A stretch of 63,523 nucleotides of DNA, counting the filler, from Nanobdellati archaeon (GTDB lineage Archaea; Nanobdellota; Nanobdellia; Woesearchaeales; JAADFO01): the NCBI GenBank assembly GCA_013152815.1. It is 5 parts of 5 records of this genome, joined end to end, with 100 filler letters (N's around TTAATTAATTAA, not from the genome) between each part and the next. Parts side by side here need not be neighbours in the genome. Positions count along the whole stretch, not along the records: positions 11,513 to 33,662 come from JAADFO010000004.1; 4 more parts are not named here. One strand, 5' to 3'. This document shows, one piece after another, positions 20,946 to 24,325 of this stretch. The notes beneath the pieces were generated by a model. It saw nothing but the letters and a program-made list of their open reading frames with translations, was not told the origin of the DNA and ran no database searches. The translations under genes and the position numbers were made by a program. Within the stretch, counting starts at the first letter, position 1. Each line of letters opens with the position of its first letter.

Positions 20946-21161
20946 TCACCCAACTCAAAAGTAGTGAATGAACCATCATTTATAAACCTTCACTGATTTA
21001 AAGAATCAAGACTCCTACATGTTGTTGAGCATCTCTGGCGCCAAGAACGCGAAAGCGTTTCCGAGCATGTTCAAATTCGGGCCGACCACTTTGTAAGTGA
21101 ACGCCAGCGCCCGGATTGCTTTGCTGCCAGAAAGCTTGCTTTCTGGGCATGAACCGGGATA

Positions 21162-21352
21162 CACAGAAAACCAGTTACAGATTCTGTGCCAAACAGTATC
21201 GCTAGCTGACCGGTCCGAAGGCGGGTTTTCTGGTACCAAAAAAACGCCAACGCCCGGATTTGAACCGGGATATCCCGAAGGAAAGCGGTTTTCGAGACCG
21301 CCGCAATACCGGATTATGCGACGTTGGCGTGGTTTTTTTGCGTTTTTTTGTG
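21162..21352. mobile_element. 191-bp MITE-like insertion with terminal IRs and TA target duplication, carrying a tRNA
   Basis: GGGA-TA-[CACAGAAAA...TTTTTTGTG]-TA-TCCC; the uninterrupted target GGGATATCCC is visible in the inner tRNA. Confidence 0.65.
21245..21328 (-). tRNA. Inner intronless tRNA-Ser(CGA)
   Basis: GCCAACG/CGTTGGC-G acceptor, GCGGT-CTCGAAA-ACCGC, long variable arm, GGTTCAAATCC. Confidence 0.93.
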
Positions 21353-21490
21353 TATCCCGAAGGAAAGCGGTTGTTTCTGACAAGAGACCTCAGAAATTGA
21401 GGAATTCTTGCCGTTCGAGACCGCCGCAGTACCGGATTGTGCCACGCTGGCATGAAGCGAAGCGGATGAGTACGTCAGCATGAAAAACTG

Positions 21491-21659
21491 GGGGCTGCGG
21501 AGATTCCCACCAAAGGGATGCACCCTTTTGAAACCCGCGCACAATGCAGCAGGATTTCCNNNNNNNNNNNNNNGATTCCCACCAAAGGGATGCACCCTTT
21601 TGAAACCCGCGCACAATGCAGCAGGATTTCCAATCCTGCAAATGGGGCTGCGGAGATTC
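21491..21659. repeat. Duplicated tRNA-Pro 3' end (GGGGCTGCGGAGATTC) with repeated unit spanning an N gap
   Basis: 16-bp copies at 21491-21506 and 21644-21659; unit GATTCCCACCAAAGGG...GGATTTCC on both sides of gap 21560-21573. Confidence 0.75.
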
Positions 21660-21715
21660 GAACTCCGGTCAGGTGGCCCCGAACCGCCTATGATACCAAG
21701 CTACACTACAGCCCC
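21643..21715 (-). tRNA. tRNA-Pro(CGG)
   Basis: GGGGCTG/CAGCCCC-A, GGCGG-TTCGGGG-CCACC, GTTCGAATC. Confidence 0.92.
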
Positions 21716-23973: not shown

Positions 23974-24325
23974 GACTTCCGGAAGAGGAGCCGATATAAA
24001 AGCTTTGTGAAGGGGAAGGGTTCCCAGGAAACGGCTAATATGAACTCCTGCAAGAACATGCCAAATACATGACCTACTCCATCGACGATGCTCAGCAACA
24101 AGTTGCTGGCACCAAAGGGAACCGTATACGTTGCATNNNNNNNNNNNNNNNNNNNNNNGTCTGGCCAGCCATCATTGTCCTCCTTTCAGTCGGAAATGCT
24201 GACATTGATGGCGCAGACGATCATGCATCTGGCAAAAAAGCAGAGGATTCCATAATAGACCAGGAAACCAAAAGAATTTAAAGAGCGACCAGTCCCTCTG
24301 CTGAAAAACAGGCGAGGTAATGATC

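Follow-up and report, generated by a model that had tools for sequence, protein, structure and literature searches.

A complete tRNA-Ser(CGA) gene within an insert that divides a second tRNA-Ser(CGA) gene in a woesearchaeal archaeon

It is common for phages and integrative elements with tRNA genes as their targets to carry part of a replacement tRNA, and sometimes a whole gene; in one described case, a full tRNA-Leu borne by a phage stands in for the host gene that was interrupted (PMC8631192). In archaea, integration of the SSV1 and pNOB8 type rebuilds the tRNA gene and leaves a direct repeat, and for Caldiarchaeum it was proposed that a new intron as well as a stray fragment had arisen through a 1.8-kb element that encodes a recombinase (Sugahara et al. 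2012, PMC3293823). Here we describe a complete tRNA-Ser(CGA) gene that lies within an insert dividing a second tRNA-Ser(CGA) gene, on the minus strand at 21451-21102 of a window from a Nanobdellati archaeon of the order Woesearchaeales (GenBank assembly GCA_013152815.1). The window is the whole stretch of DNA analysed, 63,523 nt long with filler, and positions given without a contig name count along it. On the reading that we lean towards, the insert is a site-specific DNA element, itself non-autonomous, which supplies a replacement for the tRNA that it disrupts and draws on transcription arriving from upstream.

Two other kinds of element invite comparison. MITEs (miniature transposable elements with inverted repeats) of the IS630/Tc1-mariner type are short and non-coding, with inverted ends and a TA duplication, and the REP/BIME and PATE hairpin repeats are mobilised by Y1 HUH transposases (RAYT, IS200/IS605 TnpA). 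No MITE with a tRNA as self-complementing cargo turned up in our literature searches, and in full-text searches, supplementary files excluded, no account appeared of a geneless element that had placed one tRNA gene inside another. At a smaller scale, similar short sequences in different tRNAs of Thermoproteales have been described as 'intron transposition' (Fujishima et al. 2010, in PMC4090602). How tRNA introns arrive is still open according to a 2026 preprint (10.64898/2026.10.13.758758), and the origin of archaeal tRNA introns, fragments and splits is the question that nested loci address.

Anatomy of the nested locus

The source genome (G000 in our numbering) is metagenome-assembled, 1.49 Mb in 76 contigs, with 53% G+C and 90.8% completeness, and the locus lies on its contig C4. 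Its order comprises more than 130 families with small genomes (0.6-2.7 Mb). The outer gene is split at the central TA of GGGATATCCC, where the palindrome GGATATCC is built from the 3' strand of the variable arm, nucleotide 48 and the 5' strand of the T stem. The parts of the locus, in 5' to 3' order on the minus strand, are as follows.

21414-21451, minus: outer exon 1, with the acceptor 5' strand GCCAGCG, the D arm and the anticodon stem-loop to position 37 (ARAGORN after in-silico excision)
21373-21413, minus: 41-nt insertion at the canonical position 37/38 of the outer gene, a putative relaxed bulge-helix-bulge (BHB) intron (BHB checker)
21353-21372, minus: outer exon 2, the anticodon stem 3' strand and the variable arm, ending in GGGATA (ARAGORN after excision)
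21329-21352, minus: left arm of unit A (CACAAAAAAA) and the 14-nt leader of the inner tRNA, which has no TATA-like box
21245-21328, minus: inner intron-less tRNA-Ser(CGA) (ARAGORN 21244-21329; Rfam RF00005, 54.2 bits, E 5.3e-10, against a gathering score of 29)
21236-21244, minus: right arm of unit A (TTTTTTTGG), including a run of seven T (T7); the arm pairs with the leader's A run in the minimum free energy (MFE) fold
21234-21235, minus: TA separating units A and B, forming GGTACC
21162-21233, minus: unit B, 72 nt, hairpin-armed and geneless, CCAGAAAACC ... GGTTTTCTGTG
21160-21161, minus: repetition of the TA at the centre of the target palindrome
21150-21159, minus: outer exon 3, the T-stem 5' strand and the first four T-loop bases, with TCCCGGTTCA after the second TA
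21118-21149, minus: hairpin module of 32 nt within the T loop of the outer gene (57/58), without a BHB motif
21102-21117, minus: outer exon 4, the rest of the T loop, the T-stem 3' strand, the acceptor 3' strand CGCTGGC and the discriminator
21038-21101, minus: trailer of the outer gene, an antisense T-arm copy (GCCCGAATTTGAAC) followed by another module-like hairpin

When its three interruptions are removed, the outer gene is read by ARAGORN as an 84-nt tRNA-Ser(cga) with a contiguous cloverleaf, identical to the inner gene at 79 of 84 positions. The differences fall at positions 9, 13 and 23 and at 5 and 79, the last two compensating each other in the acceptor stem. ARAGORN, Rfam and this alignment agree on an intron-less inner tRNA of the same anticodon with a compensatory acceptor change, as stated in the original prediction, which had been made from the sequence of the window. 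The matched outer acceptor halves GCCAGCG/CGCTGGC, the 41-nt anticodon-loop insertion and a 191-nt insert with inverted ends that splits the palindrome and is followed by a second TA were likewise confirmed, and the descriptive points of that prediction proved correct throughout when the coordinates were re-read on the minus strand. Among the 42 tRNAs found in G000, the inner gene is the only one with a CGA anticodon; standard tRNA finders return this inner gene alone and overlook the outer one, which matters for annotation. Both the 41-nt insertion and the outer trailer have homologs at tRNA-Ser(TGA) on contig C72, namely its anticodon intron (central pairs 3/4 there) and its trailer.

The insert (191 nt, 21352-21162) begins with CACAAAAAA and ends with TTTTCTGTG, its outermost ends being complementary at 8 of 9 positions. 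It had been taken for one element with two ends; instead, two adjacent hairpin-armed units with a TA between them were found, in the order TA-unit A-TA-unit B-TA. The arms of unit A are exact complements over only 7 nt in G000. A TA is present beside every unit, which is compatible equally with a 2-bp target duplication and with insertion without duplication, since the same arrangement is accounted for equally well by palindromic AC...GT units at the blunt centre of GAT/ATC. Several structures stand side by side when the 350 nt are folded by MFE (z = -4.6, equalled by 0 of 100 shuffles): there are helices at the junction and between leader and trailer, the inner tRNA forms its cloverleaf, unit B and the outer T loop each form a hairpin, and the outer acceptor stem is paired.

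Recurrence and turnover in the order

A tRNA-Ser inside a tRNA-Ser at the same site was found in eight genomes of five families: G000 (f1), G005 with two loci (f3), G026, G151 and G220 (f24), G075 (f73), and G336 and G398 (f109). In all eight, the outer gene is split at GGATA/.../TATCC. These carriers came from scans of junction patterns over 401 genomes of the order, each pattern with a control (the reversed pattern for the first), except that G220 was added by a synteny search. The first pattern, CCTTCGGGATACA, matched in 7 of the 401 genomes, four times at nested tRNA-Ser genes (G000, G005, G026, G151) and three times by chance in coding sequence (G024, G029, G351), and the reversed pattern gave 4 matches. 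The second, TGTATCCCNGTTCRAA, gave 13 matches in 9 of the 401 genomes against 2 in its control; seven of the 13 loci were inspected in addition to the known G005 C10 and G026 sites, the G370 locus being left out, and the match in G192 is a chance match in coding sequence. An exact-pattern scan of a genome-contig collection for G000-type ends returned 0 matches; the known carrier G398 was not returned either and may be absent from that collection.

The inserts of the nested genomes are 152-207 nt long and share a common build. The arms of unit A start with 5'-CA and are A-rich, frequently with an extra A at position 2 of one arm, and are exact complements over 17 nt in G026, 17 nt in G151, 12 nt in G075 and 15 nt in G336. 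In G398, unit A opens at the same site with the same terminal 10-mer as in G000, CACAAAAAAA. Outside G000, one or two small hairpins, each 22-27 nt long, adjoin unit A across a G-TA-C junction (present in G026, G151, G075, G336, G398 and G005), and one layer in G005 has a small hairpin before unit A. Such hairpins also occur without cargo: two cargo-less units fill the same site in G394, others are found in G005, and the 24-nt hairpin CAGAAAATCCTTTGGATTTTCTTG is identical in these two genomes of different families. Furthermore, G005 has three hairpins of the same style arrayed head to tail in the spacer that separates two protein genes.

Cargo and target have the same anticodon in 7 of 7 cases with a readable outer anticodon, namely CGA in G000, TGA in G026, G151, G220 and both layers of G005 C55, and GGA in G075 and G336. 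The outer anticodon is unreadable in G398, where the 5' half has decayed to a degenerate remnant, and at G005 contig C10, where the outer 5' halves are absent. The outer copy is intact in G000, G075, G336 and G220, and its T stem is broken in G151. On G005 contig C55, three layers lie one within another, and two stacked displaced 3' halves were found at a contig end in G071.

In family f24, the nested locus adjoins the same flanking gene in G026, G151 and G220; unit B is nearly identical in G026 and G220, and the arm start CAATGAGAA is common to G151 and G220. A search of relatives for the empty-site allele, which had been proposed as a check, led to G317 of this family, where an un-nested tRNA-Ser(TGA) with an intact GGATATCCC site lies near the same flanking gene, one extra gene standing between them. 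Two introns interrupt this gene, one at the anticodon and a long one at 59/60 in the T loop, and its D arm matches the type found in G220's outer copy. Among the genomes compared, G317 is the closest to an empty site. A DNA search of 41 relatives for an empty site in the same family gave only tRNA-sized matches. The flanking 165-aa protein was found neither in the three other f1 genomes searched nor among metagenome contigs, in which all 64 pattern matches are unconfirmed.

Origin of the nested locus

The recurrence at one site in eight genomes of five families, the arms, the anticodon agreement in 7 of 7 cases, the layers in G005, the decay in G398 and G151 and the uninterrupted gene in G317 together favour a self-complementing mini-element, one of the two readings offered originally. 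Under this model, the outer gene would be the resident tRNA-Ser(CGA), split at the central TA of GGATATCC by a short geneless insert, whose unit A would consist of inverted arms from 5'-CA around a complete tRNA-Ser with short linkers, with small TA-bounded hairpin units behind it. The resident gene would be inactivated because the junction has no splice motif. The cargo tRNA would be transcribed from upstream through the outer 5' half, probably from the promoter of a tRNA-Pro gene, and released by RNase P and tRNase Z, transcription ending at the T7 run. Only insertions bringing the same isoacceptor would be tolerated, which would explain the matching anticodons of cargo and target. As the cargo would retain the target site, it could be invaded again to give stacked layers, while displaced halves would decay or be removed by recombination. 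Candidate mechanisms of insertion are a TA-duplicating transposase, a hairpin-recognising HUH enzyme, and endonuclease- or homology-driven homing.

Splice motifs were sought with a BHB checker that looks for bulges of 3 nt around a central helix of 4 bp, with a further helix on either flank, and that was validated on the anticodon introns of G000, many of which gave 4/4 central pairs with 5-bp outer helices. At the insert boundaries (193 nt with the TA), the best of three registers had 3/4 central pairs and flanking helices of 1 and 1, and a canonical BHB was found at these boundaries in 0 of 7 nested genomes. The checker and the fold thus agree with the earlier description of the junction helix as continuous and not a BHB, and the junction does not have the form of a split tRNA of the Nanoarchaeum type. 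For the 41-nt anticodon piece, both flanking helices are 5 bp and the central helix has 2/4 pairs. The 32-nt T-loop piece scored 1/4, 0 and 0 and folds as a plain hairpin in an enlarged T loop. It had been called an intron; the insertion is indeed present, but the intron reading is not borne out, as the piece lacks a BHB and is a copy of a recurring hairpin module (described in the last section). The search for a splicing endonuclease gave a single match in G000, a 181-aa open reading frame (ORF) on contig C26 (16810-17070), whose length suggests the strict homotetramer type.

By eye, about 20 of 41 G000 tRNAs have a TTTTTAAAG- or TTTATAAA-like box about 25-40 nt upstream, and no TATA-like box was seen in the 45 nt before the inner tRNA or the 40 nt before the outer gene. 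The nearest one belongs to the following gene.

21643-21715, minus: tRNA-Pro(CGG), 191 nt upstream on the same strand, with the TATA-like box TTCTTAAAG (ARAGORN, Rfam)

Archaeal transcription can terminate at oligo-T, and the T7 run immediately after the inner tRNA is likely such a terminator; a run of at least five T within 25 nt downstream was found for 7 of 41 tRNAs. Judged from these signals, namely the missing box of its own, the tRNA-Pro box upstream and the T7 run behind, the transcript of the inner tRNA probably begins upstream, at the tRNA-Pro promoter, and ends just past the inner tRNA.

Several observations weigh against a mobile replacement element. In G000, GGATATCC is split at 1 of 66 sites and intact at 65 (e.g. 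C3:21116, C11:43307), so that the 8-bp palindrome alone does not define the target; either the target is more than the palindrome, or insertions elsewhere are not tolerated, or homology to the cargo is needed. The arm sequences vary between genomes apart from the 5'-CA start and their A-richness, which is unusual for transposase-bound ends, and in G000 the arms of unit A are merely an A run and a T run. No enzyme accompanies the insert consistently. The DDE_3 transposase (PF13358, IS630-type) was not found in the G000 search and is present in 1 of 5 other nested genomes, and the TnpB zinc-ribbon family was likewise not found in the G000 search. Y1_Tnp (IS200-like) is present in 2 of 5 other nested genomes and has one gene in G000 (C11:744-1142, minus strand), in which an in-frame TAG stands just before the segment expected to hold the catalytic tyrosine and whose own flanking hairpins are unrelated; this gene may be a pseudogene or be read through. 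Neither DDE_3 nor Y1_Tnp was found in G075 (100% complete) or G398. Elsewhere in G000, nothing longer than 14 nt matches the insert flanks, so movement within the genome was not seen, and one DNA run examined (0.06 share of words) held only short tRNA-like pieces of other organisms, none across the junctions. Finally, the outer acceptor stems of f24 (GCCGAGG/TCTCGGC, GCCGTGG/CCACGGC and GCTGACG/CGTCAGC) differ between loci and are all paired, which would fit a still-functional outer gene unless the lineages were re-invaded; re-invasion of a once-functional cargo explains this covariation equally well.

These results do not sustain the original attribution to IS630/Tc1-mariner elements: the element is single-copy, its TA duplication is ambiguous, and the further copies of the ends and the cognate transposase that were to be sought in G000 did not appear there. 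As a separate observation, the 65 intact GGATATCC sites of G000 compare with about 22 expected from base composition.

The main rival explanation is a product of recombination or repair, in which a break at the GATATC-centred palindrome of tRNA-Ser was patched with another tRNA-Ser copy and hairpin filler, the result not being mobile by itself. A paralogue, foreign DNA or another copy of the chromosome would have supplied the patch, and the allele would spread by homologous recombination with the outer halves as arms. We consider both the patching and this route of supply and spread unlikely, although the lack of a consistent transposase agrees with them, and the restriction of the insert to tRNA-Ser with 65 other GGATATCC sites intact fits a need for homology. 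Inner and outer genes are near-identical within a genome (79/84 in G000) and different between genomes, which suggests gene conversion, and the anticodon and variable arms are identical between inner and outer genes in G151 and G220. In addition, the 3'-end copies found downstream of 14 of 42 tRNAs, against 0/42 in two controls, point to tRNA loci as general hot spots of rearrangement. Random capture, however, would not yield exact inverted arms of 12-17 nt in four genomes, and repair leaves unexplained the unit-TA-unit-TA grammar, the identical 24-nt units in two families and the hairpins of the same style in a non-tRNA spacer.

A nested functional precursor, the second reading offered originally, would give two tRNAs: the inner one cut out by RNase P and tRNase Z, and the outer halves held by the junction helix and joined in the manner of split tRNAs. 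The outer exons of G000 are intact and fold as a proper tRNA after excision, the inner cloverleaf coexists with the junction helix and the outer acceptor stem in the MFE fold, and the outer acceptor stems covary across the syntenic f24 loci. Against this stand the 0 of 7 genomes with a BHB at the insert boundaries and the low scores of the T-loop module, the single 181-aa endonuclease ORF, the T7 run directly behind the inner tRNA, and the decayed or missing outer halves in G398, G151 and G005; moreover, both products would be the same isoacceptor, with no evident gain. Processing into two tRNAs is thus unsupported, and we hold it to be improbable.

A scar of an SSV- or pNOB8-like element that carried part of a tRNA in its attachment site and has since been mostly deleted is very improbable. 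Direct repeats of tRNA ends beside rebuilt tRNAs are the signature described for such elements in PMC3293823, and many 3'-end and some 5'-end copies do lie near G000 tRNAs. Reciprocal recombination at one core, however, gives two tandem chimeras and not a gene within a gene, both junctions here fall on the same dinucleotide, and the inserts are just 152-207 nt. Eight ORFs around the locus (radical SAM, flavodoxin-like and unassigned proteins) include no integrase, recombinase, transposase or homing endonuclease.

An assembly chimera of two strains or loci, for which one could cite the 76-contig metagenome-assembled genome, a 14-N gap with a 57-nt direct repeat 110 nt upstream of the nested locus and the lack of reads placed across it, can practically be dismissed, as the junctions do not lie in sequence common to both genes, exon 2 runs into unique sequence, and 7 other genomes, assembled independently, have this architecture too. 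The gap and its flanking repeat (21503-21630) lie between the tRNA-Pro gene and a copy of its 3' end, and represent either a scaffolding overlap or an unresolved tandem repeat.

More tentatively, and with rather less confidence than for the replacement element as such, we propose that the order may host a family of geneless hairpin elements that home to the TA of the tRNA-Ser palindrome and survive by means of a replacement tRNA-Ser, borrowed transcription and re-invasion of their cargo, so that a host losing the element would lose an essential tRNA; 30-nt modules in T and D loops would feed non-canonical 'introns' and stacked fragments. If this is true, the interruption of archaeal tRNA genes could be viewed here directly. 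Insertions at the DNA level are caught at several stages, as a freshly split intact resident (G000), decayed halves (G398, G151), stacked layers (G005) and an uninterrupted gene (G317). If the element is mobile, it would represent a minimal selfish design of no genes, an essential cargo and a borrowed promoter, and would offer a route for horizontal tRNA-gene replacement and intron loss.

Hairpin modules, tRNA-end copies and comparison with known systems

The 32-nt T-loop piece is a copy of a 30-nt module, a hairpin with a tail (TGCYCA-stem-TGGCA-SCAAAGS). In G000, it stands directly before displaced 3'-end copies of tRNA-Gln (two genes), tRNA-Val (three), tRNA-Glu and tRNA-Ser(TGA), and a copy is also present in the trailer of the outer tRNA-Ser(CGA); in G220, a module with the same ends lies in the D loop of the outer gene. 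A repeat of about 225 bp contains the module in 8 copies and cleanly lacks it in 2 (C41, C46), and five partial copies were found. The presence and absence of the module in this repeat, together with the missing BHB, argue for insertion at the DNA level and not for a spliced intron. The full copies of the repeat are located as follows.

24040-24256 (C4:12528-12744): MITE-like repeat of about 225 bp with inverted ends of about 40 nt (GGCTATTATGAAATCCTGCA...)
C28, C33, C39, C44, C50, C63 and C72: seven further full copies

Copies of tRNA ends are common around the tRNA genes of G000. A copy of the gene's own 3' end (at most 2 mismatches in 16 nt) lies 50-212 nt downstream of 14 of the 42 tRNAs, while the controls gave 0/42 upstream, 0/42 with the reversed sequence and 1/42 with the end of another tRNA; a 5'-end copy lies upstream of 3 of the 42. 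The tRNA-Pro gene at 21643-21715 has its 3'-end copy at about 21491-21506 on the minus strand, and 3'-end copies are also found near tRNA-Ser genes in other genomes of the order. At several loci the layout is direct-inverted-direct, that is, the tRNA, a short trailer, an antisense T loop-to-acceptor tail ending in GAAC, the module, and the tail once more in direct orientation; as sources, we considered snap-back synthesis, tandem inversion duplication and long target duplication. A second conserved structured sequence of about 90 nt, GTGGGCTCGA...GAGACCCAC TTCG GTCTCCAGAGTCGAAAG..., lies between a tRNA, which is tRNA-Leu(CAG), Cys, Ile(TAT) or Val(TAC), and a degenerate T-arm/3'-end copy. The two groups of G000 loci are given below.

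C58:3332-3411, C15:1136-1236, C53:23485-23570, C46:901-982, C71:6937-7043 and C72:4600-4771: direct-inverted-direct copies
C30:35240-35343, C60:16100-16200, C71:7780-7882 and C71:11720-11850: conserved sequence of about 90 nt

An Rfam search of thirteen tRNA-flanking loci gave only tRNA above noise, and the 90-nt and module sequences match no curated family there. Upstream of several tRNA-Ser genes in G336, G394 and G398, 5'-end copies of 12-14 nt are followed by a hairpin and an antisense 5'-end copy, stacked up to three times in G336, which mirrors the 3'-tail pattern. ARAGORN also reports long 'introns' in tRNA-Arg(CCT) (1187 nt, C16:34776-36055), tRNA-Lys(CTT) (1034 nt, C48:19293-20420) and tRNA-Trp(CCA) (220 nt, C76:20960-21272), which may be real insertions or false joins.

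Set beside the described systems, the insert combines features of several. In similarity to IS630/Tc1-mariner MITEs, it is short and non-coding, with inverted ends (exact arms of 7-17 nt) and a TA on both sides; different from them, it had no cognate transposase that could be found in G000, is single-copy and has ends that are not conserved between genomes, and the 22-27-nt companion units are too short for a synapsed double-stranded MITE. The palindromes are small and imperfect, many of them bulged by one base close to the foot, and form head-to-tail clusters, also in intergenic sequence; in this they resemble REP/BIME and PATE repeats, and G000 has an IS200-like Y1 gene as in those systems. 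However, that gene carries an in-frame stop and its own hairpins are unrelated, no Y1 gene was found in 3 of 5 other nested genomes, and, unlike in IS200/IS605, the cargo lies within the hairpin loop.

Non-canonical introns of Thermoproteales offer another parallel, with similar short pieces at T- and D-loop positions whose arrival at the DNA level is suspected in the account given in PMC4090602. In contrast to archaeal BHB introns, both the nested insert and the 32-nt module have no BHB motif; relatives do have canonical 59/60 T-loop introns in the same genes, as read from their sequences by hand. As described for SSV1, pNOB8 and Caldiarchaeum in PMC3293823, a working gene is accompanied by leftover fragments, intron content may change and close relatives are heterogeneous. 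Those cases are accounted for there by attP x attB recombination, whereas the nested locus has no recombinase and shows an inverted-end insertion.

The nearest likeness is to the phages and integrative elements that bring a replacement tRNA, as the insert would also target a tRNA gene and restore its function with a copy of its own. Unlike these elements, it has no integrase or any other gene and measures 152-207 nt; its position is mid-gene (47/48), whereas their att sites are terminal; and it leaves a gene nested in a gene rather than a rebuilt gene and a direct repeat. The nested cargo also keeps the target site, so that it can be re-invaded and stacked, while the phage tRNA-Leu, in the account of it in PMC8631192, is without the target site. 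The nested element would work like the tRNA-targeting elements that complement the gene they interrupt, and differs from them in being geneless, short, placed in mid-gene, nested, and equipped with a cargo that can itself be re-invaded.

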